DNA of 64,000 nt from Pristiophorus japonicus (taxonomy: Eukaryota). The notes under the pieces are model-generated. The model did not search any database, had not been told where the DNA came from, and saw only the letters and a list, made by a program, of their open reading frames with translations. The stretch's first letter is position 1; the number at the start of each line of letters is the position of its first letter. The stretch spans positions 21,762,001 to 21,826,000 of the forward strand of contig NC_091999.1 of NCBI RefSeq assembly GCF_044704955.1, read 5' to 3'. The position numbers and the translations under genes are program-made. This document shows positions 1 to 32,332 of this stretch, one piece after another.

Positions 1-630
1 TCTATTTATATTCCACTTGACCCTGTCTCTGGTTTAATACACTAGACCTTGACTCTGTTTATATTCTACTAGACCCTGTCTCTGTTTATAATACACTAGA
101 CCCTGTCTCTGTTTATTTTACACTAGGCCCTGACACTGTTTATATTACACTAGACTCTGTCTCGGTTTATTTTACACTCGGCCCTGACACTGTTTATATT
201 ACACTAGACACTGTCTCTGTTTATATGATACTAGACCCTATCACTGTTTATATTACACAACATCTTGTCTCTGTTTATAATACACTAGACGCTGTCTCTG
301 TTTAAATTACACTGGAACCTGTATCAGTTTTACTGCCCTAGACCAAGAGTGAAATATTTTACAGTATAACCTGCCCCTGTTCATATTGCACTCGACCTTG
401 TCCTAGTTATTACTGCACTAGACAATGCATCTATTTATAATATGCAAGGCTGTGTCTTAGTTACATTTACTGAGGTGATTAAAATGATGAGACGTGGTGA
501 TAGATTCATAGACGTTTACAAAACACTAGACCATGTCTCTGTTTACATTACACTAAACACTCTCTCTCTGTTTATCTTACAAGAAAACCTGTCCCAGTTA
601 TTACTGCACTATAACATGACTCTGTTTATA
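1..630 (+). repeat. 27-bp minisatellite (consensus ACTAGACCCTGTCTCTGTTTATATTAC), degenerating rightwards
   Basis: Tandem copies of gaccctgtctctgtttatattacacta; the 9-codon period gives the DPVSVYITL / TRPCLCLYY pseudo-ORFs elsewhere in the track. Confidence 0.9.
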
Positions 631-632
631 CA

Positions 633-1080
633 GTGTGCGATAGTATAGTGGATATGATACTGGACTAATCCACAGATCTAGAAGAATAATCCAGAGACGT
701 GATTTCAAATCCAGCCACAACAGCTGGGCGAATTTAAATTCAGTTAAATGAATATAAAATTGGAATCATAAGCTAATATGAGTAATGCTGACCATGAAAC
801 TACCAGATTGTCCTTTAGGGAATGAAATCTGCCATCCTTACCCGGTCTGGCCTATATGTGACCCACAGTAAGGGTCTCTTAAATGCCTTCTGGAATGACC
901 CAGCAAGCCACTCAGTTGTATCAAACCGCTAGAACAAAGTCAGCACTGAGTACTTTCACCACACGCACTGCAGCGGTTCAAGAAGGCGGCTCAGCACCAC
1001 CTTCTCAAGGGCAAATAGGGATGGGCAATAAATGCTAGCCTTGCCAGTGAAATCCAGACCCCATGACGAAGAAATAAAAA
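633..1080 (+). mobile_element. tRNA-headed SINE with LINE-derived 3' tail
   Basis: tRNA-like head (gtatagtgg...ttcaaatcc) and 3' tail ctgcagcggttcaagaaggcggctc...aataaatgct...aaataaaaa; the same tail ends the LINE fragments at ~12.84, 22.55, 30.19, 41.22 and 62.50 kb. Confidence 0.75.
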
Positions 1081-1124
1081 TGATTACATTAGGCAGTACC
1101 TCAGTGATTACAGCAAAATGATAT

Positions 1125-1470
1125 TTATTATACAGCAGTACCTGTCTCAGTTATTACTACACTATACCGTATCTCTGTTTATATTACACTAGGCCCTGTC
1201 TCTTTATATTATTCTAGACACTGTCTCTTTATATTATTCTAGACCCTGTCTCTGCTTATATTACACTAGACCTTGTCTCTGTTATTACTGCACTAGAACG
1301 TGTCTCTGTTTATATGACACTAGACCCCGTCTCTGTTTATATTACACGAGACCCTGTCTCAGTTATTACTGCACTAGAACGTGTCTCTGTTTATATTACA
1401 CTAGACCCTGTCTCAGTTATTACTGCAATATAAGATGTCTCTGTTTATATTACACTAGACCCTGTCTCCG
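1125..1470 (+). repeat. 27-bp minisatellite
   Basis: Tandem ctagaccctgtctctgtttatattaca with gttattactgca variants. Confidence 0.9.
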
Positions 1471-1499
1471 TAAGATAGAGAGACAGATGATAGATAGAT

Positions 1500-2015
1500 A
1501 CTGATAATCGTCAAGATATATATTTGCGTGTGTGAGAGGATGCAATAATTGTTTTTTTTACTTAGGAGCACATTTATTCTTGTTAACAGCTATCAGCAGC
1601 AGTGGGCAATGTCCTATTGATCTTGTATTGTGACGGTAATATTTGTGTTGAGAGGATGGGGTGAATCTCGTAACAATCTCCCAGAGATGGTCCGGGATTG
1701 AGGGACAGGACTGAAGGTGAGCAATTCACTGCACTTTGCACTACTTAGTGGCACTCTGTGTGTTAAATGTTACTAATTCACACGTGTGTTGCCCTGTGCC
1801 AATTGCTCACAGTTTTTAATGTTAAGGATTGTTTTTCCTGCAGTATTTTCCATTCAGCTTTCACATGGCCCACTGATTGTGTCAGACAGAGCCTTGAATC
1901 GTGACCTCACAGCACCGCCGGATGGGCAGCCGCAGAGTCCTAACGTGCACTCAGTTCAACAGCTCTCAGTTTGTTGAGAGGAACATAAAAAACACACACA
2001 AGGTGTTTGCTATAT
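1500..2015 (+). other. Block E of the unidentified gene family, in opposite orientation to the array; contains a GT-AG intron at 1717-1843
   Basis: Reverse complement of the blocks at ~15.6-16.2, 32.4-33.0, 43.4-43.95 and 54.4-54.9 kb; donor GAAG|GTGAGC at 1716/1717, acceptor tttttcctgcag| at 1843. Confidence 0.75.
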
Positions 2016-3345
2016 AAGAACATAAGAACTAGGAGCAGGAGTGGGCCATTCGGCCCCTCAAGCCTGCGCCGCCATTCAATCAGCTTATGGCTGATCTGAT
2101 ATTGGCCTCAACTCCACTTTCCTGCCTGTACCCATAACCCTTGACTCCTCTGTAGTTCAATAATCCGTCTGTCTCAGCCTTGAATGTATTCAATGACCCA
2201 GCTTCTACAACTTTCTGAGGTAGAGAATTCCTCAGATCCACGATCCTCTGATAGAAGAAATTCCTCCTCATCTCCGTGATAAATGGGTGACCCCTTATTC
2301 TGAAACTGTGCCCCCGAGTTCCTGATTCCCCAACGAGGGGCAATATCCTCTCAGCATCTGCCCTGTCAAGCCCCCTCAGAATCGTATATCCACCAATAAG
2401 ATCACCTCATATTCTTCTAAACACCAATGAGTACAGACCCAACCTGCTCAAAATTTCCTCATAAGGCAACACTTTCAATTCAGGAATTAACCTCATGAAT
2501 CTTCTCTGAACTGCCTCCAATGCATGTATGTACTTTCTTAAATAAGGAGACGACAACTGTAGGCAGAACTCCAGGTGTGGTCTCACCAACACCCTGTGCA
2601 GTTGGAGCAGGACTTTCCTACTTTTATACTCCATCCCCCTTGCAACAAAGCTCAACATTCCATTTGCCTTCCTGATTACTTGCTGTACCTACATGCTAAC
2701 TGTTTGTGTTTCATGCACAAGGACAGCAAAATCCCTCTGTCGCGCAGAATTCTGTAGTCTCTCTCCATTTAAACAATATTTTCCTTTTCTATTCTTCCTA
2801 CCTAAGTTGGTATCCTCACATTTTCCCACATTATACGCCAGCTGCCATTTTTTTGGTCCGCTCACTGAGCTTGTCTATATCCCTTTGCAGACGCTTTGTG
2901 TCCTCTTTAAAACTTGCATTCCCACCCATCTTTGTATAATCAGCAAATTTGGCAACATTACACTGTCATTTAATCCATGTCATTAATATAGATTGTAAAT
3001 ATTTGCGGCCCCGGCATTGATCCCTGTGGGACCTCACTAGTTACAGTTGCCAACCTGAAAATTACCATTTTATCCCAACCCTGTTTTCAGTTAGTTAGCA
3101 AATCCTCCATCCATATTACCCCCAAAACCATTACCTCTTATCTTGCGTCGTAACATTGATGTGGCACCTTATCGAATGCCTTTTGGAAATCCAAATACAC
3201 TCCATCTACCAATTCCCCTTCATCCACCCTGCTCGTTATATCTCAAATAACTCTAATAAATTTATCAAACACGATTTCCCTTTCATAAAACCATGCTTAT
3301 GCTGATTGATTGCAATTATGATTTTCTAAATATCCTGCTACGACT
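2016..3345 (-). mobile_element. CR1-clade LINE (HER1-like), 5'-truncated ORF2 3' part, degraded
   Basis: (ATAAGAAC)n tail at 2016; ORF fragments LVRPHLEFC, EMRRNFF.QR.V.L.NSLP. Confidence 0.9.
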
Positions 3346-3520
3346 TAATATATTTAAGGTGGAACTAGATAGATTTTTGAATGATAAGGGTGTGAAGGGT
3401 TTTGGGAAGCGGGCAGGGAGGTGGAGCTGAGCTAGCAGCAGATCAGCCATGATCTTATTAAATGGCGGAGCGGGCTCGAGGGGCCAAATAGACTGCTCCT
3501 ACTTCTATTTCTTATGATCT
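3346..3520 (+). mobile_element. CR1 LINE 3' end fragment
   Basis: gatagatttttg...cagccatgatctt...ctcctacttctatttcttatg tail. Confidence 0.8.
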
Positions 3521-4283
3521 TACGGCCCATCGCGCCTGCTCTGCCATTCAATAAGATCATGGCTGATCGGATCATGGACTGAGGTCCACTTCCCTGTCCA
3601 CTCCCAATATACCCTTATTCCCTTATCGTTTAAGAAACTGTGTATTTCTGTCTTAAATGTATTCAATGTCCCGGCTTCCACAGCTCTCTGAGGCAGCGAA
3701 TTCCACAGATTTACAGCCATCTGAGGGAAGAAATTCCTCCTCATCTCAATTTTAAATGGGCTGCCTCTTATTCTAAGATCTTGCGCTTTAGTTCTAGTTT
3801 GGCGGGAAAAAAATCAAAGATCAAGTTATTATTTAAATGAAGAAAAATTGCAAAGTGCCGCCGTACAGCGGGACCTGGGGGCACTTGTGCAAGAAACGCA
3901 GAAGATTAGTATGCAGGTAGAGCAAGTGATCAGGAAGGCAATCGAATCTTGGTCTTTGTCGCAAAGGCAATGGAGTATAAAAGCAGGGAAGGCTTGCTGC
4001 AGTTGTACAGGGTATTGGTGAGGCCACACCTGGAATACTGTGTGCAGTTTTGGTTTCCATATTTACGACCAGATGAACTTGCTTTGGAGGCAGTTCAGAG
4101 AAGGTTCACAAGGTTGATTCCGGAGATGAGGGGTTGATTATCAGGAAAGGTTGAGTAGTTTGGGCCTCTACTCATTGGAGTTCAGAAGAATGAGAGGTGA
4201 TCTTATCGAAACGTATAAGATTATGGGGGGTTTGACATAGTGGATGCAGAGAAGATGTTTCCACTGATAGGGGAGTCTAGAAT
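3521..4283. mobile_element. CR1 LINE with internal inversion (3521-3797 minus, 3798-4283 plus)
   Basis: Minus part encodes MRRNFFPQ..WNSLPQ; plus part encodes the immediately upstream LVRPHLEYCVQFW...RMRGDLIETYK segment. Confidence 0.8.
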
Positions 4284-4289
4284 TGGAAC

Positions 4290-5800
4290 TAGCGGTTTTC
4301 AGTCAGTAGTGAAAACTGACTGCAAAAGCTTCTATCGATAGGTGAAGAGAAAAAAAATAGTTAAGACAAATGTAGATCCCTTGCAGTCAGATTCAGGTGA
4401 ATTCATAATGGGGAACAAAGAAATGGCAGACCAGTTCGACAAATGCTTTCATTCTGTCTTCAAGAAGGAAGACACAAATAACCTTCATGAAATATTGGGG
4501 GAACGAGGGTCTAGTGAGAAGGTTATTAGGCGGGAAATTGTGTTGGGGAAATTGATGGTGTTGAAGGCCGATAAGTTCCCGGGGCCTGATAGACTGCATC
4601 CTGGAGTACTTAAGGAAGTGGCCCTCGAAATAGTGGGTGCATTGGTGATCATTTTCCAACAGTCTATCGACTTTGGATCAATTCCTATGGACTGGAGAGT
4701 AGCTAATGTAATAACACTTTTTAACAAAGTAGGGGAGAGAAAACGGGTAATTATGGACCGGTTAGCATGACATCAGTCGTGGAGAAAATGTTGGAATGAA
4801 TCATTAAAGATGAAATAGCAGCGCATTTGGAAAGCAGTGTCAGGATCGGTACAAGTCAGCATGGATTTAGGAAAGGGAAATCATGCTTGACAAATTTTCT
4901 AGAATTTTTTGAGGATGTAACAATAGAGTAGACAAGGAAGAACCAGTGTATGTTGTGTATTTGGAATTTCAAAAGGCTTTTGACAAGGTCCCACACAAGA
5001 GATTGGGGCGTAAAATTAAAGTGCATGGTATTGGGGGTAATGTACTGACGTGGATAGAGAACTCGTTGGCAGACAGGAAGCAGAGAGTCGGAATAAATGG
5101 TCTTTTTCAGAATCGCAGGCAGTGACTAGTGGGGTGCTGCAGGGCTCAGTGGTGGGACCCCAACAATTTACAATATACATCAATGATTTAGATGAAGGAA
5201 TTGAGTGTAATATCTCCAAGTTTGCAGATGATACTAAGGTGGGTGGCGGCTTGAACTGTGAGGAGGATGCCAAAAGACGACAGGGTGACTTGGACAGGTT
5301 AGGTAAGTGGGCAAGTGCATGGCAGATGCAGTATAATGTGGATAAATGTGAGGTTATCCACTTTGGTGTCAAAAACACGAAGGCAGAATATCATCTGAAC
5401 GGCGGGGGATTAGGAAAAGGGGAGTTGCAACGAGACCTGGGTGTCATGGTACGTCTGTCATTGAAAGTTTGCATGCAGGTACAGCAGGTGGTGAAGAAGG
5501 CAAATGGTACGTTGGCCTTCATAGCGAGGGGATTTGTGAACAGGAGCAGGGAGGTCTTAGCGCAGTTGTACAGGGCCTTGGTGAGGCCTCATCTGGAATA
5601 TTGTGTTCAGTTTTGTTCTCCTAATCTGAGGAAGGACGTTTTTTGCTATTGAGGGAGTGCAGCGAAGCTTCACCAGACTGATTCCCGGGTTGACAGGACT
5701 GACATATGAGGAGAGACTTGATAGACTGAGCCTGTATTCACTGGAGTTTAGAAGGATCAGAGGGGATCTCATAGAAACATAAAATTCTGAAGAGAATGCA
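4290..5800 (+). mobile_element. CR1 LINE ORF2 (reverse transcriptase) fragment with frameshifts
   Basis: ORFs 4342-4770 (PGPD.LHP.VLKE) and 5050-5652 (GVLQGSVVGP, FADDTK, LVRPHLEYC); FQKAFDKVPH between them. Confidence 0.95.
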
Positions 5801-5821
5801 CAGGTTGAATGCATGAAAAAT

Positions 5822-6020
5822 CGTGCCTGTGCCGGCTCTTTGAAAGAGCGATCCAATTAGTCCCCCTCCCCTGCTCTTTCCCCATAGCCCTGTGATGTTC
5901 TCCCTTCATGTATCTGTCCAATTTCCATTCGAGAGTTATTAGTGAATCTGCTTCCACCACCCTGTCAGGCAGTGCGTTACATTTCACAACAACTTGCCGC
6001 GTAAAGAAAAACATCACCAT
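5822..6020 (-). mobile_element. Older CR1 subfamily 3' fragment
   Basis: gtgcctgtgccggctctttgaaagagc...; CNALPDRVVEADS translation. Confidence 0.75.
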
Positions 6021-6689
6021 ATAAAATGAAAGGGAGCGAGTCACCATCTCCAGGCTTCAGAGAGCAGAGGGAGCTCAGTGACCGATCCACACACACCGCC
6101 AGTCATTTCCAGAATGGACACTCTGAACAACAGGCTCATTTGCAAATGTCACCGCAATGTGTGGCTCTGCACCGACTCCCTGGCCAAGTATAGGTCTCTT
6201 GTCAGATGTTTCCACCAGATTGCGGCCCGTGTGTTTATTTACTGCCCAGAAGTGAGATGTGCGGTTTGGAGCCTGCAGCACAGAAACAGGAAGTTGTGTT
6301 GCCTGAGACTGAAATAACGTCAATTTGATGTTATCACCATGAACAGGCTTCCGGTCTGTGAGGGAGGCCTCACCCTGACAGCACCAAGACCCACAGCACA
6401 GATTGCCATTCATCTCAACATTGCATTCACCTCTATTCTCATTTTGAAGATTAACACCCAAGCACTTATTTGGGGTTTAACACGTTCACCAAGGAGCGAG
6501 ATGGACTGAATGTGATCACTGGGATAAAAGAGGGGAGATAAAAATGAACTTACCCCAAACAGTGCTATTGGAAAATAGAAGGTTTTTGGTAATTTAGATA
6601 CTCTCTGAGAGATAGAGAGGGAGAGATAGGCGAGAGGTAGAGTGCGTTAGGTGTTCTCTGAGGCAAAGGCCGCTACATCTTTTAAGGGA

Positions 6690-7005
6690 CAAAATAAAAA
6701 CAGAAAACACTTTAAATCTCAGCTGGTCAGGCAGCATCTGTGGAGAGAGAAACAGAGTTAACGGTTCAGAGAGAGGAGAGAGGTTGTGTGAGTTCGGTGA
6801 TGTCCGAGAGAGGAAGACAGAGAGGAGATGTGTTAAGTCTGAGGCAGAGAGGAGAGAGGATATGCGCGTGAGGCACTCTTTGAGACAAAGGCCGCTACAT
6901 GTTTTAAGGATTAAAACAAAAACAGAAAATACTGGAAATCTCAGTGGGTCAGGCAGGAGAGAGAAACAGAGTTAACGTTTCAGGTCGATGACCCTTCATC
7001 AGAAC
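6690..7005 (-). mobile_element. Penelope-like terminal-repeat fragments (two tandem copies, ~6690-6768 and ~6912-7005)
   Basis: aaaacagaaaatactggaaatctcag...cagcatctgtggagagagaaacagagttaacgtttcaggtcgatgacccttcatcagaac; flanked by related catcttttaaggg / catctttcaaggg sequences. Confidence 0.6.
6971..7005 (-). ncRNA. Minimal type I hammerhead ribozyme motif
   Basis: Minus strand GUU-CUGAUGA-A-GGGUC-AUC-GACCU-GAAA-CGUU-AAC: both core boxes, stem II, palindromic ACGU stem III and GUU/AAC stem I. Confidence 0.65.
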
Positions 7006-7317
7006 ATCTTTCAAGGGGACGGTGGAACAATTGTCTGAAGCAAGTATGATACCAAGCTATGCAGAAAGAGTGGACCAGCATAATTAGATTTGGGTTATTC
7101 CAGTACAGGTCCAGTACAGATGCGGTGGGCCAAATGGCCTATTTCTGCGCAGTGAGCTACTAAGATTCTATGGTACAATATGAGGAAGGGAAGGGACGTA
7201 TTTGGACATCCCGATTAAGACCTCTCGCTCTCCCAGCGCAAAATAATTTATTTCACTACACCCGTGAATAACTGGACTTTCGCTTGTGTTAATTACCAAC
7301 ATTTTAACACCATTTCT

Positions 7318-7705
7318 TGTATGTGGAGCACATTGATGTGTTTGTGGAGCACACTGATGTGTGTGTGTGGAACACGTTGATGTGTGTGTGGAGCACATTG
7401 ATATGTGTATGCAACACATTGATATGTGTGTGTGGGGCACATTGATGTGTGTGTGAAGTACATTGATATGTATGTGTGGAAATATTGATGTGTCTTTGTG
7501 ACAGATTGATGTGTCGGTGGAGCACATTGATGTGTGTGTGGAGCACGTTGATATGTGTGTGTGGAGCACTTTAATGTTTGTGTATGGAGCGCATTGATGT
7601 GTGTGTGGAACACATTGATGTGTGCAGGGAACATTATTGTGTGTGTTGATCATGCTGATGTGTGTGGTTCACATTGATGTGTGTGTTGCTGTCCATGTGC
7701 TGATA
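7318..7705 (+). repeat. ~21-bp minisatellite (GTGTGTGTGGAGCACATTGAT)
   Basis: Tandem cacattgatgtgtgtgtggag units with variable TG length. Confidence 0.9.
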
Positions 7706-7770
7706 TTTCTCCTTCTTCGGCGTGGAAATGCATCGTTTGAACATCATTCAAAAGAAAATGCATCAATTAG

Positions 7771-8240
7771 AAAGAAAGACTTGCATTTACACAGGTCCTT
7801 TCACCACCTGAGCACGTCCCAAAGCGCTTTACCGCCAATGAAATTACTTGAAGTGTAGTCACTGTTGTAATGCAGGAAACATGGCAGCCAAAATGAGTGC
7901 AGCAAGCTCACACAAGCTGCAAGTGATCATTGAGCAGATAATCGATTTTCTCTGTGTAGTTCGTTGACTGGAAGTTATTGAACTGGACACTGGGGAGAAA
8001 TCACCTGTTCTTCTGCACAATCATGCCATGGGACCTTTTAAGTAGATCTGAGGGGGCAGATGGGGCCTCGGGTTAACTTCTCAACCCAAAGACGGCAACT
8101 CCGACAGTGCTGCACTCCCTCAATACTGGCACCAGGAGTGATGTGCCTGGACTTTGCGCTCAAGTCTATGGATTGTGAGTTTATCCCAAAACTATCTTAG
8201 ACCAAGGGGAAAGTGAGATACACTGAGCCTCGGCTGACAC
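7771..8240 (-). mobile_element. SacSINE1/DeuSINE-type SINE, near full length
   Basis: Reverse complement has a tRNA-derived head (ggctcagtg...), Deu core (gagggagtgcagcactgtcggag) and tail gtaaagcgctttgggacgt...taaatgcaagtctttctt. Confidence 0.85.
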
Positions 8241-8279
8241 AAACAGACGTTGCCCTGTGCAATGCAATGAATACATGCC

Positions 8280-9090
8280 CCCGGGTAATATAAACAGAGA
8301 CAGGGTCTAACGTAATATAAACAGAGACAGGGTCTAGTGTAATATAAACATGGATAAGGTCCAGTTTAATATAAACAGGGACAGGGTCTAGTGTAACATA
8401 AACAGTAACAGGGTACAATATAATATAAACAGAGACAGCTTGTAGTGTAAATTAAACAGTGACAGGGTCTAGTGTAATATAAACAGAGGCAGAGTCTAGT
8501 GTAATATAAACAGAGACAGGGTCCAGTATAATATAAACAGAGACAGGTTGTAGTGTAATATAAACATTGACAGGGTCTAGTGTAATATAAACATTGATAG
8601 GGTCTAGTGTAATATAAACAGAGACAGGGTCTTGTGGAATATAAACAGAGATAGGGTCTCGTGTAATATAAACAGAGACAGGGTCTCGTGTAATATACAC
8701 AGAGCCAGAGTCTAGTGTAATATAAACAGAGACAGAGTCTAGTGTAATATAAACAGAGACAGGGCCCAGGGTAATATAAACAGAGACAGGGTCTAGTGTA
8801 ATATAAACAGAGACAGGGCCCAGGTTAATATAAACAGAGACAGGGTCCAGTGTAATTTAAACAGAGACAGGGTCCAGTGTAATATAAACAGAGACAGGGT
8901 CTAGTGTAATATAAACAGAGACAGGGCCCTGTGTAATATAAACAAAGACAGGGTCTAGTGTAATATAAACAGAGACAGGGCCCCGTCTAATATAAACAGA
9001 GACAGGGTCTAGTGTAATTTAAACAGAGACAGGGCTTAATACAATATAAACAGAGACAGTGCCTAGAATAGCAGAAACTGAGACATGGCC
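8280..9090 (-). repeat. 27-bp minisatellite, homogeneous array of about 30 units
   Basis: Tandem acagggtctagtgtaatataaacagag. Confidence 0.95.
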
Positions 9091-9654
9091 TTGCGCAGTC
9101 ATAGCTGTGCCCTTTGTTTAATGGCCCTGCTGCACGTGGAAACATTTTCACAGAATCACAGTGCCCGAATTTGTTGGACTTATTGCCAGCTGCCACCGCG
9201 TTTTCTCCGCGCTCTCCCTGTATTTTGAGTGCCCTCCTCTCCGAGCGATTTTGATGAGGTCGCAACACCAACAAAAGACTTCCTGCCCGCTCCCTCCCGA
9301 GATTGGTCCAGCCAGTCCTCCACTGCGGCAGCAGAAGATAGTGCACTTGTTTTCTTCATTGCTTTTGTAGCCATTTTGTTGGTCCTCTGAAGAATTTGTT
9401 GAAATGTTTTTGTCCCGTTACCCCCTCCGTGGGCTGGACTCTATCCACGGCGTTGCTTTGCTAAGGATCGCATTTACCAGCCAGGATCCGAACCACGGCC
9501 CGCTGCTGCCTAGAATCGGCGTGTAAGGCCAATTTTTATCCACTGGGCATTATTTTCCCATTTTTCCACCAAACTTTCACCCTGCACCGTGAGGAAATTC
9601 GTAGTCCTTTCAACGTTACATGGGCGGTATTTAGCTTTGACCAAACTCGGGCCC
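9091..9654. mobile_element. Probable non-autonomous DNA transposon remnant, one end only
   Basis: CpG-rich island absent from other unit junctions; ends in aaactcgggccc (reverse complement GGGCCCGAGTTT), resembling PIF/Harbinger-type termini; no matching second TIR seen. Confidence 0.35.
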
Positions 9655-10249
9655 ATAGATTAGTACAGCACGGTCAGTGGCAATTCAGCCAATAGAGTCT
9701 GAGCCGGTTCTTCCCAAAACCAATCAAATTAGTCTCACTCCACCACTCTTTTGCTATATCCCTGCATTTTTCTCCTTCAGGTATTTATACAATTTCATTT
9801 TGAAAGTTAGTCTTGAATCTGTATCTACCACCCTATCAGGCAGTACACTCCAAATCCTAATCAGTGGTTGCAAAAATAAGTTTGTCCATATATTGCCTCT
9901 GGTTCTTTTGTCAATCACCTTACATCTGAAACAGTTTCTATTTATTTACTCTATCTAAACCCTTGATGATTTTAAACACATCTATCAAATCTCCTCTTAC
10001 TTCTCTCCTCTAAGGAGTAGAATCCCATCTTCTCCTGTCTCTCCACAATGACTGAACTCCTTCATGCCTGGTACTCAACTCGTGAATCACCTCTTAACCT
10101 TCTCTTCTCCACGGAGCATAACCACAGCTTATCCAGTTTCAGAATATATGAACGCCCGGTGAAGGAATTGGGTGCAGAAAATTCCAGCTGAGGAATCCTC
10201 ATCGATGGAAACAGAAACACTGCAAAGGGAAAAATAGGAATCACTTTGG

Positions 10250-10490
10250 CTGAGAGAATGATGAAGGGAGGGAGGACTGGAGCAAGCGAAGAGTGGAGTG
10301 ATGGAGGGAGGGAGGGGTGGGTGCAGGTAAGGAGCGATTGATGGAGGGAGCGATGGAGGGAGGGAGGGATGGGTGCAGGTAAGGAGCGAGTGATGGAGGG
10401 AGTGTTGGAGGTATGGAGGATGGGAGCGATGAAGGGAGAGAGGGATGGAGAGATGGATGGAGGGTGAGAGGGATGGTGAGAGGGAGTGAT
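10250..10490 (+). repeat. Purine-rich (GGA/GGGA) low-complexity tract
   Basis: gatggagggagggaggg-type repeats; equivalents at ~20055-20365, 27708-27890, 38750-38995, 50090-50310 and 59680-60445. Confidence 0.9.
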
Positions 10491-10859
10491 GGGCTATCTC
10501 CCAATTAACCTGAGCAAAACTCTCCATGATTTTGAACACTTCTATTAAGTGGCCCAAACCTGCTCGGCTCTAAGGAGAACAGTCCCAGCTTCCAGCTGCT
10601 CTGATGGTGTAGCTCACAGAGGGTAAAACTCAGGTTCCTTGAGTCCTTCTGCCTGGGGCACTTTGAGATGTTCCTTGCGGAATTGCCGACACTTTTATAT
10701 GGACCCAGTGTAAATCCTAGTGTGGGAATGACATCCAAGGCAAGAAAAGAGAACTGGCCCCTGATAATAAATGGATCAGTGTAATTCTGGTCTCAGGCCC
10801 TCAACTTCAGACACGATGAGCTGAATGGAAATTTAAAAAAATACAAGCTGTGATATGTT

Positions 10860-11312
10860 CAAGCCTCGGCTCAGTGTGGTCGCTCTCGGCTCCTGACTCA
10901 GAATGTCACAGATACTAAACCCACTCCAGAGACCTGAGCACAAAATCTATGCCGACATGCGCAGTGCCAGTACTGAGGTCGTGCTGCACGATCATATGTG
11001 CCATCTTTCGGGGCAGACATTAAACTGAGGCCCATATTCCAACTCAGTTGGATTTAAAGGACTCATGGCACTCTGTTAAAGAGCAGAGGAGTTCTCCATG
11101 GTTTCAAGGTCAAATATGTAACCCTCAAGCAACTTCTGAAAAATTGATTATCTGATCATTATTCCATTGCTTTTTCTGGTCTCTTGCTGTGCACAAAATG
11201 GCTGCCCCATTTCCTACATTGCAACAGTTACCACACTTCCAAAGTAATTAATTGGCTGTAAAGCACTTTGTGACAACATGAAGTCGTGATAGGCGATATA
11301 TAAATGCACGCT
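10860..11312 (+). mobile_element. SacSINE1/DeuSINE-type SINE (unit copy 1)
   Basis: ggctcagtg head, cagtactgagg..gtgctgcac core, ggctgtaaagcacttt...tatataaatgca tail. Confidence 0.9.
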
Positions 11313-12184
11313 GTTGCTAAATTTCAACATTTGAAAATACAATTTGCATTATGTGAAACGTTCAGATATTAAAGTGATTGTAGGACACTCCTCTGGTCAC
11401 TGGTGTAACTTGTTTAGTTTCAAAAGGTTAAATCCTCCACTAAATGGAGATCCAGTGGAATAGCAGCCTGTTCATAGATGATCCCAGCAGCAGAATATTT
11501 AGAACTGAATTATTCATTTTAATATTTATTCGCTTTGATAAAAATCACATCTGTTTTAATTGAACAAAACTGAAGCCAACTTCACTGTTCGACATATTTC
11601 TATTAATGTTGTATCAACTGTCAATATTCTTAAAATAATTGCTTGTTGTGAGTTGAAACTAATCAATAACTGACTCTGTTAATCTGATTCTGCTGCCATG
11701 AACACTTCATGGGAACCAGTGAGTCGTTTATGTAAATAATCAGATAAAAAGAAGTCCCAGATTAGAGTATTGAGCGATGGAAACACAATAAATGTGTCCC
11801 CACCAACACAGCACAGAAATAAAGATAGAGAGAAATGCAAATCTCTCAACAGATTCCAGCAACAATTGTTTTTTGGTACATTTCACTAAATTATAGGAGA
11901 ATAAAATAAAGATGATACCCACGGACAAAATGGGGAAAGATTCTAATCACCGTACACAGCAACATCACAAGTGTGACAGTGGAGATTTCCTGTATCTCTC
12001 CCTCTCCTATTTCCACTTTCCATCTTGTCTCTCAAGAAGAGATAATTGGCCTTCCCGCACAACTAGATGTCAACATCTAACAAATGTTTTCCTTGAGCCC
12101 CAATGATATGCCTCGGAACAAATTGATTGGGTTGCACAGAAGGAGCATTAATCCAAAATATGACACGTGTATTAAATTATCTGG

Positions 12185-12460
12185 CATTGTTTGATGGAAC
12201 AGTGCAGAGGGATCTTTACACTGTATTTAACCCGTGCTATACCTGCCCTGGGTGTGTTTGATGGGACCGTGTAGAGGGAGCTTTACTCTGTTTCTAACAC
12301 CGTGTTGTACCTGCCCTGGGTGTGTTTGATGGGAACATGCAGAGGAAGATTTACTCTGTTTGCAACCCGTGCTGCACCGGCGCTGGGAATGTTTGATGGG
12401 ACGGTGTAGAGGGAGAATTACTCTGTATCTGACATCTGCTGTACCTGCCCTGGGAATTAC
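12185..12460 (+). repeat. ~67-bp tandem repeat
   Basis: gtgtttgatgggac.gtgtagagggagctttactctgtatctaacccgtgctgtacctgccctggg about 4 times; equivalents at ~22062-22270, 29570-29905, 40685-40895, 52003-52280 and 61937-62222. Confidence 0.9.
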
Positions 12461-12837
12461 TGGGTTGAGTGTAGTAATAGCTGAGACAGGGTGCAGTGTA
12501 ATATAAACACTGACATGGTGAATTATAATAAAAGCAGAAACAGGGTCTAGTTGAATAGAAACAGAGGCATGGTCTCGTGCAGTAATAATGGTGACAGGGT
12601 CTCGACTAACATAAACAGAGACATGGTCTAGTTTAGTAATGTGAAAGGATGGGGCCAGTGTAATATAAACAGTGTCCTTGTCTAGTTTAATATAAACAGA
12701 TTCAGCTTATTGTGTAATAGAAACAAAGGCATGGCACATTCCAGCAATATCTGAGTCAGAGTCTAGAATAATATTAGTAGCTCTACTGCAATAATAACTG
12801 AGGTGGAGCCTTGTGTCGTAATTACTGATACAGTGAT

Positions 12838-13257
12838 ACTTTAATTGGTTCCTGGCATGTGGGTGTGGGTGCCGCTGACGAGGCTAACATTGATTCTCTA
12901 TCCATAATTGGCCTTGAGAAGGAGGTCATGTGCGGCCACCTTGAACCGCTGCTCTCCGTGTGGTGAAGGGACCCCCACAGTGTTAGGGAGTGGGTTCCAT
13001 GAATTATACCCAGCGACTATGAGGGACGGTAATAAATTTCCTAGTCAGGATGTTGTGTGATTTGGAGTGAACTTTGAGGTGGTGGTGTTCCCACGAGGCT
13101 GCTGCACTTGTCCTTGTAGGTTGAAGAAATCGTAGGTTTGGAAACTGCTGTCGAAGATGTCTTTGCGAGTTGTTGCAATATATCGTGTAGATAGTAATCC
13201 CTGCAGACATGGTGTGCCGGTGGTGGAGGGAATAAATATTTAACGTGGTGGATGGGG
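12838..13257 (-). mobile_element. CR1/L2-group LINE 3' end (partner tail of the SINE at 633-1080)
   Basis: HHRRT.SAV.TI.KMHCSNSPRHLRQH.PNLR motif in unit copies at 22545-22950, 30192-30605, 41223-41640 and 62498-62917; deleted in copy 5. Confidence 0.75.
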
Positions 13258-13319
13258 TAATATAAACTGGAGCAGGGTCTAGGGTATTAATAACTGAGAC
13301 AGGCTCTGATGTATTACAA

Positions 13320-14480
13320 AATCATAGAATAGTTACAGCACAGAAGAGGGCCATTAGGCCCAAGTTGCCCGTGCCGCTCTCTGCGAGAGTATTTCAGCTA
13401 GTCCACACTCCACCCTTTCCCGTAGCCCTGTGAATTTTCTTCCTGCAGGTACTTACCCAGTTCTCTTTGCAATGCCATGATTGACTCTGCCTCCACCACC
13501 CTTTCAGGTAGTGCATTCCAGATCCTAACCGCTCGCTGTTTAAAAACGTTTTCCTCATGTCGCCTTTGGCTCTGCTGCCAATCACCTTAAATCTGTGGTC
13601 CTCTGTTCTCGACCCTTCCACCAATGGGAACAGTTTCTCTCTAGCTATTCTGTCTTGACAGTTTATTTTTCTGAACACCTTTATCAAATCTCCTCTCAAT
13701 CTTTTCTATTCTACAGAGAACAACTCCAGCTTCCCAAGACTACCACGTAACCGAAGTCCTTTATCCCTGGACTCACACTTGTAAATCTTTTATGAACCCT
13801 CTCTAAGGCCTTCACATCTTTCCTAAAATGAGGTGCCCAGAATTGGACCCAATACTCTAGTTGAGGCTGAACCAGTGTTTTATAAATATTCATCATAACA
13901 TCCTTTCATTTGTATTCTATGCCTCTAATTATGAAGCCCAGGGTACCGTATGCTTTTTAGCCACATTCTCAGCCGCCTCTGCCACATTCAATGAGTTGTG
14001 CATGTATACCCCCAGTTCACTGCGTTCATGCATCCTTTAGAATCGTATCCTTTAGTTTATTTTGCCTCTCCTCGTTCTTCTTACCAAACTTTATCACTTC
14101 ACAATTTTCTGCGTTTAATTTGCCACGTGTCCACCCATTCCACCAGCATGTCAATGCCATCTTGCAGTCATTATTATCCTCCTCACTGTTCACTATGCTT
14201 TCAAGTTTGATGCCATCTATAAATTTTAAAATTGTGCCCCTACACCCAAGTCTAAGTAATGAATATGAATCATGAAAAACAGTGTTCCTAATGACAACCG
14301 CTGCGGAACTCCACTATATACCTTCCTCCAATCCCCAAAAAAAACCACTACTCTCTGATTCCTGTCACTCAGCCAATTTCATACCCTGCCGCCACTGTCC
14401 CTTTTATTCTATAGGATTCAACTTTTCTGCAAATGATATTTTCAAGATACTTTATCAAACGCCTTTTGGAAGTCCACCAC
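13320..14480 (-). mobile_element. Old CR1 LINE, part of the repeated unit
   Basis: MRGDLIKVF, LVQPQLEYWVQFWAPHFRKD; equivalents at ~30670-31800, 41705-42860, 52590-53690 and 63550-64000. Confidence 0.9.
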
Positions 14481-15023
14481 ATCAACCATATAAACTGAGA
14501 CTCGGTCTTGTGCAGTAAAAACTGCGACAGAGTCTGGTGTAATGAGAGAAACAATAATTGCAGATTTATTAACCGTATGCCAGGTACAGGTGCAGTTTCA
14601 TGTTGGCCATCACTTGCACCAATAATCATACACTCGAGGTGTATAACAGGGCATTCTGTCTGGCGGTGAGGTGATCACTGGTCAAAGAAGCTCAGAGACT
14701 GGTGGTGGTCTGCTCATTATCCTCGGTGTGAATTAATCCCCTTTCCCACTGAACACTGCAAACAGACATGGTCACCTTGGTAACGGAATGGTCAGTGTGA
14801 CATCACTTTCTAAAGCAGAACACGCAAGACAATGTGTTATCAATAAATATTAAAGGTAATAAACGACCTACCATTAGCTGCAGAATAACATTTAAAGGAA
14901 AAAAAGTAATGGTTGAAGCTAATCATTTATCTTTGTTGATAGCACTTGCACGTATTATAAATGATGTGTCTTATACACACACACACATACACAGACACAC
15001 ACACACGCACACATACACACACA

Positions 15024-15622
15024 CATCATAGGCAGTCCCTCGGAATCGAGGAAGACTTGCATTCACTTTAAAAATGAGACCTTAGGTGGCTGAACAGTCC
15101 AATACGAGAACCACAGTTCCTGTCACTGGTGGGACAGAGAGCCGTTGAGGGAAAGGGGCGACGTGGTGTGGGACAGGTTTGCCGCACGTTCTTTCCGCTG
15201 CCTGTGCTTGCTTTCTGCATGCTCTCAGCGATAAGACTCGAGGTGCTCGGCACATTCCCGCATGCACTTCCTCCACATAGGGCAGTCTTTTGTCTTTGGC
15301 CCTGCTGTATGCCTCAGAGACATGGACCATGTCGAGTACAACCCTCAAGCCGCTGGAGAAATACCACCAACGATGTCTCCGCAAGATCCTGAAAATCTCT
15401 TAAGAGGACAGACGCACCAACGTTAGCGTCCTCGACCAGGTCAACATCCCCATCATTGCAGCACTGACCACACTTGATCAGCTCCGCTGGGCAGGCCACA
15501 CTGTTCGCATGCCAGACACTAGACTCCCAAAGCATGCACTCTGCTCGGAACTCACGTCAAACGAGCGAAAGGTGGGCACTGGAAGCGTTACAAGGACACC
15601 CTCAACGCCTCTCTGAAAAGGT
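15024..15622. mobile_element. RTE-clade LINE 3' end with inverted 5' segment, inserted in (CA)n
   Basis: Minus 15024-15300 encodes CPTSDRNCGSRIGLFSHLRSH with an (ATG)-type tail; plus 15300-15622 encodes LLYASETWT...LRWAGH.VRMPD.RLPK. Confidence 0.9.
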
Positions 15623-16185
15623 ACACACACACAGACACATATAGCGAACACTTTGTGTATGCTATTTTCAGTTGTTCGTCTTAACCAAATGAGCGATACA
15701 GTTTTTGAAGACATTAGGACCCTGAGGCCGCCCATCCAGTGGTGCTGTGAGGTCACGGTTCCAGGCTCCTTCTGACATAACCAGTGGGTCACGTGACAGC
15801 TCCAGAGAAAATATTGCAGGAAAAACAATTCTTATCATTAATTAACTGAGAGAAATTGGCACAGCACACCACAAGTGTGAATTAGTAACCTTTAACACAC
15901 AGTGTGCCACTAAGTAGTGCAAAGTGCAGTGCACTATTGCCCACATTCAGACTTGTCCCTCAATACCAGTCCATCTCTGGGAGATTGTTACAAGATTCAC
16001 TCCATCCTTTCAGCACAAATATTAACGACATGGCACCAGATCAATTAGGCATTGCACACAACCTTTGATAGCTGTTAAGGAATCGAAACATATGTTCCAA
16101 CCAAAAAAGTATTGCATCCTCCTACCCACACACATGTATATCTTTATTTATATTAATATCTCTCCAGCGTCTATATATCTTCTGT

Positions 16186-16630
16186 GTTGCTTTGGCATTC
16201 TCGTGTCCTGGCATGCAAACTATGTGGCCTGCCCAGCGGAGCTGATCAAGTGTGGTCAGTTCTTCAATGTTGGGGATGTTGGCCTGGTCGCGGACGTTAC
16301 AAGGACATGCTCAAAGCCTCCCTGATAAGGTGCAACATCCCCACTGACACCTGAGAGTCCCAGGCCAAAAACCGTGCTAAGTGGAGAAAGTGCATCCGGG
16401 AGGGTGCTGAGCTACTGGAGTCTCATCGCGGAGAGCATGCAGAAATCAAGTGCAGGCAGTGGAAAGAGCGCATGGCAAACCATTCCCACCCATCTCTTCC
16501 TTCAATGACTATCTGTCCCACTGTGACAGAGACTGTAATTCCTGTAATTGGACTGTTCAGCCACCTAAGAACTGATTTTAAGAGTGGAAGCAAGTCTTCC
16601 TTGATTCCGAGCAATTGCCTATAATGATGG
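16186..16630. mobile_element. RTE-clade LINE 3' end with inverted 5' segment and 8-bp target-site duplication
   Basis: TSD tcttctgt at 16178-16185 and 16631-16638; empty site in other copies; minus 16186-16295, plus 16295-16630. Confidence 0.9.
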
Positions 16631-17085
16631 TCTTCTGTCTAGCTAACAGACGCATGGTCAAGTGCCGAAATAACTGAGACAGGGTCCGTTGTGCAATAAA
16701 TTGAAATATAGAGCCTGGAGTGGGTGTTTATTCAAAAAATATCTGAGACCGAGACAAAAGTGAGACATACTGAGCATCGTCTCACACAAACAAACATTGT
16801 CCTGTGAAGCGCAATGGATATATGGCCCAGTGTAACATAAAGCGACACAGGGCCTAGTGTAACATCAAAGGATACAGGGCCTCGTGTAATATAAACAGAG
16901 ACAGGTTATAGTGCCATTTAAACAGAGACAGAGCCCAGTGAAATTTAAGCAGACAAGGCGTAGTGTAATATAAACAGAGACATGATGTAGTGAAATTTAA
17001 ACAAAGACAGGGTCTAGAGTAATATAAACATGGACAAGGTATAGTGTATTAAAAACGGAGACACTGCCTCGTGTAATATAAACTT

Positions 17086-18780
17086 AAGAACACAAGAACA
17101 TAAGAAATAGGAGCAGCAAGAGACCACCTGACCGCTCGAGCCTGCTCCGCCATTGAATAAGCTCATGGCTGATCAGATCATTGACTCAGCTCCACTTCTC
17201 TGCCTGCCCCCCATAACCCTTTATTCCCTTATCGCGCAAAGATCTGTCTATCACCGCCTTAAATATATTCAATAACCTAGCCTCCACAGCTCACTGGGAC
17301 AGAACATTTCATAGATTTACAACCCACTGAGAGAAGAAATTCCTCCTCATCTCAATTTTAAATAGGCGGCCCCTTATTCTGAGACTATGTCCCCTTGTTT
17401 TATGTTGCCCTGTGAGTGGAAACATCCTCTCTGCATCCACTCTGCCAAGCCCCCTGATTATCTTATACGTTTCGATAAGATCACCTCTCATTCTTCTGAA
17501 TTCCAATGAATAGAGGCCCAACCTACTCAACCTTTGCTCATAAGTCAAACCCCTCTTCCCCGAAATCAACCTAGTGAACGTTTTCTGAACGGGCTCCGAA
17601 GCAAGTAAATCGTTTCTTAAATATGGAAACCAAAACTGCACGCAGTATTCCAGGTGTGGCATCACCGATACCTTATGGTGTTGGTTCAATGGTGTAATGG
17701 TGAGCACTCTGGACTTTAAATTCAACGATCCGTGTTCAAATCTTAAGATAGATATAGCTGTGGAAAGCCGTCCCTGCTTTTATACTCCATCCCCTTTGCA
17801 ATAAAGGCCAAGATACTATTGGCCTTCCTGATCACTTGCTGTACCTGCATAGTATCCTTTTGTCTTTCATGCACAAGTACCCCCCGGTCCCGCAGTCCTG
17901 CGACAATTTGCAATTTTTCTCCATTTAAATAATAACTTGCCCTTTGTTTTTTTCTGCCAAAGTGCATGACCTCGCACTTTCCAACATTATACACCATCTG
18001 CTAAATTTTTGACCACTAACTTAGCCTGTCTGTGAACTTTTGCAGATTTCTTGTGTCCTCATCACACATTGCTTTTCCTCCCATCTTTGTATCATCAACA
18101 AACTTGGCATCGTTACACTCAGTCCCTTCTTCCAAATCATTTATTTAGATTGTATACTGATCCCTGCGGCCCCACACTAGTTACTGGTTGCCAAACAGAG
18201 AATGAACCATTTATCCAGACTCTCTGTTTTCTGTTAGTTAGCCAATCCGCTATCCATGCTAATATATTACCCCCAACCCCGTGAACTTTTATCTTGTGCA
18301 GTAACCTTTTAGGTGGCACCTTGTCAAATGCCTTCTGGAAGTCCAAACGCACCACATCCACTCGTTGCGCTTTATCCTCCCTGTTCGTTACATCCTCAAA
18401 GAACTCCAGCAAATTTATCAATCATAAATCCATGCTGACTCTGCCTGACCGAAGTTTCCTTTTCCAAATGTCCTGCTACTGCTTCTTTAATAATGAGTTC
18501 CAACATTTTCCCAACCACAGATGTTAGGCTAACTGGTCTATAGTTTCCTGTTTTTTGTCTGATTCCTTTTTTAAATAGTGGCGTTACATTTGCAGCTTTG
18601 CAATCTGCGGGGACCTCCTCAAACTCCGGGCAATTTTGGTAAATTACAAGCAATGCATCCACAAACCCTGCCGCTACTTTTCTTAAGACTCTAGGCTGCA
18701 AATCATCAGGTCCAGGGGAATTATCTTCCTTTAGTCCCAATATCCTACTGAGTACCACCTCCTTAGTGATTGTGATGGTC
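17086..18780 (-). mobile_element. CR1 LINE linking units 1 and 2
   Basis: aagaacataagaa tail; PHLEYCVQFW, LDFQKAFDKVP, GNYRPVSLTS; same right junction (atggtca...gattagt) as at ~47550 and ~58660. Confidence 0.95.
17683..17743 (+). pseudogene. tRNA-Gln-derived pseudogene (anticodon position reads TTA), 3' acceptor strand missing
   Basis: ggttcaatggtgtaatggtgagcactctggactttaaattcaacgatccgtgttcaaatct closely follows vertebrate tRNA-Gln; interrupts a CR1 sequence. Confidence 0.9.
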
Positions 18781-21700
18781 ATTTGTTGATTAGTAGAGCA
18801 CAGAAGGTGACAATTCAGCCCATAGAGTCTGTGCCGGTTCTTTTGAAGAACAATCCAGTTAGTTTCACTCACCCGCTCTTTCGCTATATCACTGCATTTT
18901 TAACTCCTTCAAGTATTTACACAATTTACTTTTGAAGGCTACTATTCAATCTATATCTACCACCCTATCAGGCAGTACACTCCAAATCCTAACCAGTGGC
19001 CGCGTAAAGAAGTTTGTCCACATATCGCCTTTGGTTCTTTTGTCAATCACCTCACACCTGCAACAGCTTCTATTTATTTACTCTATCTAAACTCTTGATG
19101 ATTTTAATCTGGTCTTTCAAATCTGCTCTTAGACTTCTCTCCTCTAAGGTGGAGAATCGCATCTTTTCCTATCTCTCCACATTAACTGAAGTCCCTCATC
19201 CCTGGTAACATTCTATTAAAGATGCCCTTAACCTTGTCCAATCCAAGGAGAACAATCCCATCTACTCCTGTCTCTCCACATTAATTGAAGTGCTTCATTC
19301 CCGCTGCTATTCCACTGAATTCCCTCTTAAACTTCTCTACTCCAAGGAAAACAACCCCAGCTTCTCCAGTCTTTCCACATAATTTTAATCCCCCATCCCT
19401 GATGCGTTTCCAGTAATTCTCTTCTGCACCCTCTCGAAAGTCTTCACGTCCTTCCTAAAGTGTGGTGCCCAGAATTGGACACAATCCTCCAGCTGGGGCC
19501 GAACTCGTGCATCTAGTCTTTCATCCTTGGTGCCAATCTGGTAAATCTCCCCTCACCCTTCTCTGCTGTAAGAAGAACAGTCCCAGATTCTACAAGATGT
19601 CCGTGTAACGAGAGCTTGCGTCCTACCTTCCAGTACACACAATGTCATCGAGCTCCAGGCAGGAACTGGCCCAACTTCAATAGCGAGAAGGGGCAAGAAA
19701 AAGGAGCAACTGAAAGTCGCGGATGTCTAAAAACAATTTTTCAAACTGTTACCCTTATTTATTTAATTTATAAGCAGAAAAAGTATCCTCACTGCCCCAG
19801 CTAGAACTTCTACCCAAAGCCAGTTCCCCAGCCAACTCCCTCTCCGAAAAGGTCACCATTTTATTTCTTGTCAGTCTTTTTAGGTGGGGAGGGGTTGGGA
19901 GGTTAAATATAAATATTTGCCATCGCTCGCTCTTTTATTTGTTAATATATATGGAAGCCCGGTGAAGGAATTGGGTGCAGAAAATTCCAGGTGAGGAATC
20001 CTCATCGATGGAATCAGAAACACTCAAAAGGGAAAAATAAGAATCTGTTGGGCTGAGGGAGGGATGGAGGGACGGACGAGTGGAACAAGTAGGGGTGGGG
20101 TGATGGATGGGTGGAGGAATGGACGGAGGGAGGGATGGGTGCAGGGAGAGAGTGATTGATGTAGGGAGGGATTGAGGAAGGGGGGAGTGGAGCAAGGGAG
20201 GATTGATGTGAAGAATGGGTTTAGTGTGGACAGAGGCAGGGAGCGGTGGGTCCAGGGAGGGAGCGATTGATGGGAAGGGGGATGGTGGGAAGAAGGGAAG
20301 GAGGGATGAAGGGAGGGAGGGAAGGAGATACGGGTGGATGGAGGAAGGGATGGTAGGAGGGAGTGATGTAATATCTCCCAGTTTACCCGATCAAAACTCT
20401 TCATAATTTTTAGCACCTCAATTAAGTGGCACATAACCTGCTCGGCTCTAAGGAGAACACTCCCAGCTTTTAGCTACTTTGATTGTGCAGCTCACACATT
20501 GTAAAACTCAAGTTCCGTGAGTCCTTTTGCTTCGGGCACTTCCAGATGTACCCTGCGGAATCGCTGACACTTTTATTTCGACCCAGTGGAAATCCCAGTG
20601 TGGGAATGACATCCCAGGCATGATAAGATAACTCGCCCCTGATAATAAATGGAGCGGTGTAAGACTGGGCTCAGGTCTTGAACTTCAGACACGATGAGCT
20701 GAATGGCAACATTTTAAAATACAATCTGTGATATGTTTAAGCCTCGGTTCAGTGGGATCACTTTCGCCTCTGACTCAGAAGCTCACAGATACTAAACCCC
20801 ACTCCAGAGACCTGAGCCCTTAAGCTGTGCTGACACATCCGGTGCCAGTACTGAGGGAATGCTGCATGGTCAGATGTGCCGTCTTTTGGGGCAGGCATTA
20901 AACTGAGGCCCCAGCTTCCCACTCAGCTGGATATAAAGGACTAATGGTACTATCCTAAAGAGCAGAGGAGTTCTCCACGGTTTCCCGCGCAAAAAATTAT
21001 CCCTCAACCAACACCTGAAAAATAGATTATCCGATCATTATTTCATTGGTGTTTGTGGGATCTTGCTGTGCATAAATTGGCTGCCACATTTCCTACATTA
21101 CAACAGTGACCACATTTCCGGAAAAACTCATTGGCTGTAAAGCTGTTTGGGACAACATGAGGTCAGGAAAGACGCTGCAAGGTGTTTCTAAATGTCAACA
21201 TTTGAAAATAGACGTTCCGATTTGTGAAAAGCTCAGATATTACTGTGATTGTCGGGCACTCCTCTGGTCACTGGTTTAACTTATTTAGTTTCAATGGGTT
21301 AAATCTTCCAATAAATGGAGATCCAGTGGAATAGCAGCCTGTTCAGGGATGTTCCACTGATTTCAGCTGCAGAACTTTCAGAACCGAATTATTCATTTTG
21401 CAATTTATTCCCTTTGATATGAAACACATCTGCTCTAATTGAACAAAACTGAAGCCAAAGTCACAGATCGAGATATGTATATATCTGTGTACCAAATGTC
21501 AATATTCTTAAAATAAGCCCTTGTTGTGAGATGAAACGAATCAATAATTGACTCTGTTGATTTGATTTTGCTGCCATGAACACTTCATGGGAATCAGTGA
21601 GGCGTTTATGTAAATAAACACAGAAATAGAAATCCCAGATTAGAGCATTGAGCGACAGAAACACAATAAATGTTTCCCCACCAGCACAGCACAGAAATAA

Positions 21701-23235
21701 AGATAGAGAGAAATGCAAATCTCTCAACAGATTCCAGCAACAATTGTTTTTTTGGTACATTCTCTAAATTATAGGAGAATAAAGTAAAGATGATCCCCAC
21801 GGTCAGAATTGGGAAAGATTCTAGTCACCATATATAGTGACATCACAAATGTGACAGTGGAGATTTCCTGTGCCCTCTCCCTCCCGTATTTCCACTTTAT
21901 GTCTTGTCTCTCAAGAATGGATAATTGGCCTCCCCCCCACAACTAGATGTCAATATCTAACAAACGTTTTCCTTGAGCCCTACTGAAATGCTTCGAACCA
22001 TGTTGATGATAGTGCGCAGAGGGAGATTTAATCCAAAATGTGACATGTGTATGAAATGATCTGGGAGTTTTTGATGGGACAAAGTAGAGAGATCTTTACA
22101 CTGTATCTAACCCGTGCTGTACCGGCGCTGTGAATGTTTGATGGGACGGTGTAGAGGGAGCTTTACTCTGTATCTAACCCGTGCCGTACCTGCCCTGGCA
22201 ATGTTTGATGGAAAGGTGTAGCGTTAGCATTACTCTGGATCTGACACATGCTGTACGCGCCCTGTGAGTTACAGAGTTTAGTACAGTAATAACGGAGACA
22301 GGGTCTAATTGAATATAAACAGAGGCATGGCCTAGTTTTTTAACATGAAAGAATGGGGCTAGTGTAATAAAAACAGTGTCTTTGTCTCGTTTATTATAAG
22401 CAGAGACATGGTTCTGAGTAATAGGAACAAAGGCATGACATATTCCAGTAATATCTGAGACACGGCATAGTACAATATTAATAGCTCTAGTGCAATAATA
22501 ACTGAGATAGGACATAGTGCAGTAATTATTGATACAGGGACAGTGTTTTATTCATGCCTGGCATGTGGGTGTTGATGGCAAGGCCAACATTGAATGCCTA
22601 ACCCGAATTGGACTTGAAAATCAGGTGTTGAACTGCGACCTTGAACCGCTTGCAGTCCGTGTGGTGAAGGTACTTCCACAGTGTTAAGGAGGGGGTTCCA
22701 CGAATTTGACCCAGCAATTATGAAGGAACCGTAATAAATTTCCAAGTCAGAATGGTGTGACTTGGAGGGGTACGTGGAGGTGATGGTGTTCCCATGAGCC
22801 CGCTGCTCTTGTCCTTCTAGGTGGAAGAGGTCGTAGGTTTGGAAAGTGCTGTCGAAGATGTCTTGGCGAGTTGCTGCAATGCATCTTGTAGATAATACTC
22901 ACTGCAGACAAGGTCCGCCGATGGTTGAGGTAGTGAATTTTTAATGGATGGTGCAATATAAACAGGAACAGTGTCTAGTATACTAATAACTGAGACAGGC
23001 TCTGGCGTAATTATACAATCATAGAATGGTCATAGCACATAAAAGTGCCATTGGACCCATATAGCCCGTGCCGCTCTCTGCAAGATTATTTCAGTTCGTC
23101 TATTCCCACGTCCTTTCCCGTAGCCATGTGAATTTTCTTCCTTCAGCTACATATCCAAATCCATTTGTAATGCCATGATTGACTCTGCCTCCACCACCCT
23201 TTCAGACAGTGCATTGCAGTAATAACTGTAACAGG
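18781..23235. repeat. Tandem segmental unit, copy 2 (right half missing)
   Basis: Has exon A (19935-20022), exon B (20496-20638), SINE, block C, 67-bp repeats and LINE tail; lacks exon D and block E. Confidence 0.9.
20738..21185 (+). mobile_element. SacSINE1/DeuSINE-type SINE (unit copy 2)
   Basis: Same sequence and flanks as 10860-11312. Confidence 0.9.
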
Positions 23236-23339
23236 GTCCAGGGTCTCAATTACCAAGACAGGGACTGCAGGGTGGAAGAGTAAACTGACCACAGAACCGA
23301 GGTAAGGGGGCCATTCAAGTGGGGGAGCAAAACGAAATG

Positions 23340-24260: not shown

Positions 24261-24384
24261 TCCTAGCGTGATTTAAAAATATTCCTTGTCCATTGCAATA
24301 ATAAGTGCGGCAGGATCTAGTGTTTTATAAATAGAGACGGGTCTTAGTGTAATATGAACCTAGACATGATGTAGTTATAGAATA

Positions 24385-32314: not shown

Positions 32315-32332
32315 GACACACATACATTTGCA

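Follow-up and report, generated by a model that had tools for sequence, protein, structure and literature searches.

Head-to-tail amplicons with breaks in repeats are known from the human copy number variant (CNV) at 20q11.21, where one break lies in or near an Alu element and the other in a microsatellite (PMC8165465), and tandem duplication with a templated insertion, as in the local n-jumps, is a class described in cancer genomes (PMC7025897). A third report describes SacSINE1, a chondrichthyan short interspersed nuclear element (SINE) with a Deu domain and a tRNA head, whose whale shark copies measure 97 to 463 bp (PMC5499810). Here we consider a tandem array in a 64,000-nucleotide stretch of the Pristiophorus japonicus genome (hereafter the window; contig NC_091999.1 of assembly GCF_044704955.1, forward-strand positions 21,762,001 to 21,826,000, numbered below from its first letter). 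The window is repeat-rich DNA of vertebrate type; on its self-comparison, blocks recur several times at about 80% identity amid LINE (long interspersed nuclear element) fragments and arrays of a 27-bp minisatellite. The array probably belongs to a class already known, that of head-to-tail tandem duplications, and its mechanism would be an ordinary one. As in the 20q11.21 CNV, for which microhomology is proposed, copies in the same orientation share one junction, with breaks in or beside a SINE and in a tandem repeat; unlike that variant, the present array is fixed and old (units about 16% diverged), and features units of about 10 kb, at least six copies and a microhomology of 3 to 4 decayed bases (PMC8165465). 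Narrow literature searches on this locus returned no relevant paper.

Within a unit, the order is a SINE head, a spacer of about 38 bp, a 27-bp array, a marker (p), blocks A, B, D and E, and two 27-bp monomers. We consider it likely that the seam between units is a head-to-tail tandem-duplication junction, that position 8163 is the left boundary of the array and keeps an uncut SINE, and that a block near the left end of the window, E0, is a separate and probably older inverted duplicate. The original prediction had instead read this seam as the junction of an inversion of the first 9 kb. The first unit, T1 (8163 to 16708), is a collinear chain of blocks that comprises, after the head, the spacer (8241 to 8278), the 27-bp array (8285 to 9090), a private insert (9091 to 9653), marker p (9654 to 10140), the A-B-D body, the block E copy E1 and two monomers. 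From the head onward it chains on the plus strand, and in order, with T2, T4, T5 and T6 (four of the five units compared); T3, which has no SINE head, is collinear with T1 from the array onward. T2 and T3 together span 16709 to 33031, T4 33032 to 43996, T5 43997 to 54950 and T6 54951 to 64000, where it continues past the right edge of the window. At four junctions, near 16709 (T1/T2, 16644 to 16720), 33032 (T3/T4, 32966 to 33040), 43997 (T4/T5, 43945 to 44005) and 54951 (T5/T6, 54895 to 54960), reversed block E and about two monomers are joined to a SINE head, spacer and array matching 8163 to 9090, in agreement with the earlier description of the unit ends. This end-to-start junction is the same at four of the five unit boundaries, the T2/T3 boundary having lost it. 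Each seam links one copy's end with the start of the copy that follows, and no inversion is required to account for it.

The phase of the unit is decided by marker p. The T1 copy at 9654 shows 82.1 to 84.6% identity to the copies at 18788, 47552 and 58664 and 64.7 to 70.7% to six other copies of its family; because it groups with the unit copies, the sequence beyond the 8285 to 9090 array is itself unit sequence. The original prediction, which placed the head and array at the right end of the unit and took 8163 to 9090 for a separate donor, was thus out of phase: 8163 to 9090 opens the first of the tandem units and lies on their common strand. It follows that a mis-phased repeat unit can make a duplication seam look like an inversion.

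At the left boundary, the duplication breakpoint cuts, at about 8162 to 8165, a complete SINE of about 470 bp on the minus strand (7771 to 8240). The unit heads show about 73 to 82% identity to the head at 8162 to 8240, and the latter shows 58 to 62% to the six copies of a unit-internal SINE, a thin family control in that these six descend from one insertion; the heads are therefore closer to the left-boundary copy than to other family members, as had been anticipated. The spacer of about 38 bp past the SINE end is common to the units, although in the last unit it is split by a LINE and resumes near 56510; lying outside the SINE, it is a stronger proof of common origin than head identity. In T1 the element is uncut at 8163 and its body is not derived from a unit: 7771 to 8161 is 66 to 68% identical to the three internal copies tested of six, which as whole elements are 82 to 85% alike among themselves. 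Furthermore, contigs from two runs of one sample read across 8163, carrying the body and head of the SINE plus the spacer, at about 84% identity. Since the body differs from the internal copies and contigs bridge 8163, the complete element is ancestral and the truncated one derived, and in this respect the earlier proposal stands. The element, which we presume to be SacSINE1-like, measures about 470 bp; SacSINE1 copies in the whale shark reach 463 bp (PMC5499810). As a Deu-SINE it would be expected to have a tRNA-related head, a Deu domain and an L2-type tail.

The right-hand breakpoint can be recognized in the inverted paralogue of block E. E0 (1472 to 2013, plus strand) matches in reverse at 15640 to 16185, 32422 to 32961, 43397 to 43941 and 54368 to 54891, with 77.2 to 82.5% identity, and the homology ends precisely where the 3' tail of a LINE lies, at 2014. 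It adjoins a minus-strand 27-bp array (1082 to 1471), in which the monomer ending at 1123 matches the junction monomer; of all non-unit sites in the window it ranks first with profiles of 22 and 35 bases and is joint first with one of 18 bases, and six states common to it and the units are not found together in any of 92 other monomer-like windows. The break corresponding to 1123 lies inside the array, which continues in decayed form to about 1082 and resumes, beyond a SINE-like insertion, at 1 to 630 (minus strand), where this outer part runs past the left edge of the window. Since the long array is kept where the units are cut, E0 preserves, in inverted form, the uncut right flank of the unit. 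The inserted element (631 to 1081, plus strand), which we take to be HE1-like, matches other repeats of the window only over its 3' 120 to 140 bp or so; the match of 947 to 1428 to a unit-internal array and repeat tail was examined as a case of orthology and rejected, since only the shared 3' tail matches. The elements at 631 to 1081 and at 30190 to 30600 (with paralogues of the latter) are different but have a common 3' tail, and each lies within a 27-bp array in the same relative orientation, a placement that possibly reflects a target preference. As for the earlier account of the breakpoints, the copied piece does include monomers, but only about two stand between E and the head rather than the whole array from 1125 to 1471; likewise, the breaks were placed about right, yet the one at 1123 lies inside the array and the one at 8163 inside the SINE, about 120 bp from an array.

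Three of the four features that define a head-to-tail duplication are thus found, namely, a collinear same-strand first copy, a shared junction and an uncut left flank in the leftmost copy. In further support, the unit bodies are 82 to 86% alike, with a star-like site pattern over 1421 columns. Taken together, collinearity, shared junction and left boundary are the part of the tandem reading in which we have the greatest confidence; the repair mechanism, the order of ages and the origin of E0 are inferred. The ancestral single locus would have consisted of a flank, the complete SINE, the spacer, a 27-bp array, marker p, A-B-D, block E and a second 27-bp array, in that order from the left. A single head-to-tail duplication, with its left break inside the SINE at about 8163 and its right break two monomers into the second array, would have joined the two ends, probably via 3 to 4 bp of microhomology, and the unit with its seam may then have been multiplied by unequal crossing-over, the copies being individualized by later insertions and deletions. 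E0 with its long array would represent an inverted duplicate of the E end that kept the uncut right flank, its downstream part having been lost among LINE insertions, with a scar near 5820 also cutting it off; that E0 is such an older duplicate we regard as probable. At the seam, a monomer-like filler of about 8 bases runs into 3 to 4 bases common to the SINE, decayed in two of the four units and in E0, and microhomology-mediated repair is plausible. On this reading, the array is a clean textbook example in which the founding breakpoints of an old tandem array are still legible, one within a SINE and one within a minisatellite.

Several observations weigh against this reconstruction. The array continues past 64000, so that the predicted uncut right flank falls outside the window, and the seam microhomology is short and decayed. 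The 8162 head is slightly farther from the unit heads (74 to 82%) than those heads are from one another (78 to 89%), distances that would also fit both copies splitting at one seeding event. A separate event is required to place E0 in inverted orientation, and its status as the older paralogue is weak. In its favor, E0 differs over 509 columns from the unit copies by 20.0% and these differ among themselves by 14.8% (confidence interval, CI, of the difference 2.3 to 8.2 points); however, E0 is not significantly farther from E3-E5 than E1 is (difference of 2.4 points, CI of -1.2 to 6.0), and the E tree is star-like, with support of only 49 to 53%. Block E at 1.5 to 2.0 kb is not nested in a supported array clade, which was the outcome named beforehand as compatible with the earlier proposal.

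It is possible to hypothesize that the duplication carried a templated inverted insertion, in which the ancestral unit ended at a (CA)n tract after D, replication switched to the opposite strand of E0, copied from about 2013 to 1123 and re-entered at 8163, so that E0 would be the donor and E newly attached to D-B-A. As in the local n-jumps, an inverted template that is short and lies close to a breakpoint of the duplication would lead to the same junction, but here, different from them, the D/E junction may be old and E0 looks somewhat older than the split between the units (PMC7025897). The nearest intact source of E with its monomer end is indeed inverted and about 6 kb from the left breakpoint, and E0 and the 8162 head are about equidistant from the three better-preserved units (79.7 to 82.5% and 80.0 to 82.2%). 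However, this course would demand a second new junction exactly at the present LINE tail in E0, whereas an E0 homology that ends at that tail requires no new E join in the units; moreover, in 1478 to 1635, a stretch over which the units are 75 to 91% alike, E0 departs from their majority state at 44 of 154 positions, and marker p of T1 shows no such excess distance. We therefore consider a templated insertion, which retains the core of the original prediction in altered form, rather unlikely. A bolder version, in which a template switch in a single event duplicated the locus and pasted E, as an inverted conserved block of promoter and first exon, onto previously unlinked D-B-A, after which the chimeric transcription unit was amplified to many copies with a core of about 150 bp under selection, appears more doubtful still; if it were true, donor, both breakpoints and products would all lie within 64 kb.

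The same junction would arise in two steps if a direct duplication of greater length, taking in left flank and complete SINE, was followed before amplification by a deletion that reached from monomer 2 to inside the head of the SINE, with E0 inverted later. Deletions between 27-bp monomers seem to occur, as at the T2/T3 boundary, and contigs show relatives, at about 85%, of parts of 6.1 to 8.3 kb, but this course involves one event more than the window calls for, and none of the five boundaries is undeleted; we give it a small probability. Smaller still is the probability of the simple inversion originally proposed, with the 1 to 9 kb arrangement ancestral and 1123 to 8163 inverted in a duplicate, even though it agrees with how E0 is oriented and with where both breakpoints lie. 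After such an inversion, the units would be expected to contain 6009 to 7770 together with the SINE body, and a reciprocal junction should remain. The left flank at 6009 to 7770, however, has no unit copies: 6009 to 6600, 6600 to 7320 and 7690 to 7770 as queries (the TG-rich tandem repeat at 7321 to 7689 being left out) gave no other match in the window better than E=0.015, and a 150-bp test sequence planted at 78% identity turned up in 10 of 10 trials. No reciprocal junction was found in the window, and since the SINE body adjoining 8161 matches there only the six unit-internal SINEs, the window holds no headless reciprocal piece. In addition, 8163 to 9090 runs on into unit sequence just as at the other boundaries. 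Nor is the 1 to 9 kb arrangement intact, as 2014 to 6008 bears a scar later than the LINE insertions: at about 5820, a CR1-like piece that is short of about 340 bp at its 3' end is joined to a LINE-type piece of opposite orientation that has no 3' tail (5819 to 6008, minus strand). LINE insertions normally retain their 3' ends, and the fusion thus points to a later deletion or rearrangement. Lastly, the complete SINE might have been rebuilt by recombination of a head remnant with the internal SINE of the same family, which each unit carries in opposite orientation, E being flipped at the same time; the body identity of 66 to 68% to the internal copies refutes this, the sequence to the left of 7771 does not belong to the unit, and we attach practically no weight to it.

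Whatever the origin of E0, the point of remaining interest in block E is its conserved core of about 150 bp (1636 to 1790 in E0, plus strand), which would matter more if E had been grafted onto new exons. In an alignment of four units (3987 columns kept, arrays and simple repeats having been excluded beforehand), the best 120-column segment falls in E (U3, 32654 to 32773); it has 14 changes where about 40 are expected (p=0.0006 by permutation; p=0.0014 once CpG columns are removed). The core is kept in all five E copies; within it, 5 of 155 positions in E0 deviate from the majority of the units, compared to 44 of 154 in one flank and 13 of 150 in the other flank. This conservation could derive from selection or gene conversion. 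A candidate splice donor at 1716/1717 and a candidate acceptor at 1843/1844 are each intact in four of the five copies, E1 having neither. In the best of six frames, 1654 to 1716 shows six synonymous and two non-synonymous changes (uncorrected p=0.007), with a stop in that frame; no coding signal was found in 1843 to 1944, A or D. Block A (27596 to 27680 and paralogues) has a strong acceptor-like site in four of five copies, likewise without coding signal. Rfam gave no match at the gathering threshold over the window and two chance-level matches in 1400 to 2050, and folding of the core consensus gave 0 of 46 pairs changed on both sides. For the five-copy peptide of 1843 to 1974, a search limited to longer proteins had 2665 candidates, none of which reached E<=1, and one against 1.84 billion representatives gave three matches, all short and inside repetitive unrelated proteins; a core motif scan of metagenome contigs had no match. 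In the contigs of four of seven runs, the 1716-1844 joint was not among the 15 joints listed, beyond which 1926 more exist, and runs X5 and X6 are of unspecified kind, so that their cover of E carries no expression information. Letters private to E0 were not seen at three sites in the contigs, which is no proof of their absence. In runs X1 and X3, the listed core sites occur in up to 27 to 38 contigs, compared to 3 to 11 for sites at 6.0 to 7.8 kb, which hints at a larger E family, though it gives no copy number. Two related LINE-type insertions, presumably RTE-like, flank E1 in opposite orientation (15025 to 15623 and 16185 to 16632; 78.7% identity over 258 bp), the second with a short target duplication.

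Some units show features of their own. T2 is without D and E and ends near 23260, leaving an irregular boundary with T3 at about 23.2 to 26.9 kb; there (23220 to 26870), a lone monomer is followed, with D, E and the SINE head absent, by a long variant array of the 27-bp type (25334 to 26544), the final part of which (26590 to 26861) is inverted. After the array of T4, 33570 to 35980 holds inserted, decayed DNA-transposon open reading frames (ORFs) on the minus strand, which from their motifs we take to be hAT/ZBED-like, and an assembly gap of 186 N (54182 to 54367) stands where the (CA)n tract of T5 is expected. Judged by eye, the recognizable long ORFs are transposon-derived in look or lie inside repeats.

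In the left flank, 6617 to 6769 and 6841 to 6983 form a local direct duplication with 78% identity over 153 bp. What we take to be ETS-like motifs at 6260 to 6370 possibly mark the promoter of another gene, and contigs contain relatives of 6138 to 6451 at 86 to 95% identity. The stack of LINE fragments at 2014 to 5821, in both orientations and with reverse transcriptase-like ORFs, is presumably CR1-like. At 3521 to 4287 a CR1-like copy is split into two oppositely oriented pieces, which have about 11 bp in common when placed on the reference copy; a 5'-inverted (twin-primed) insertion has this layout, a pattern familiar mainly from L1.

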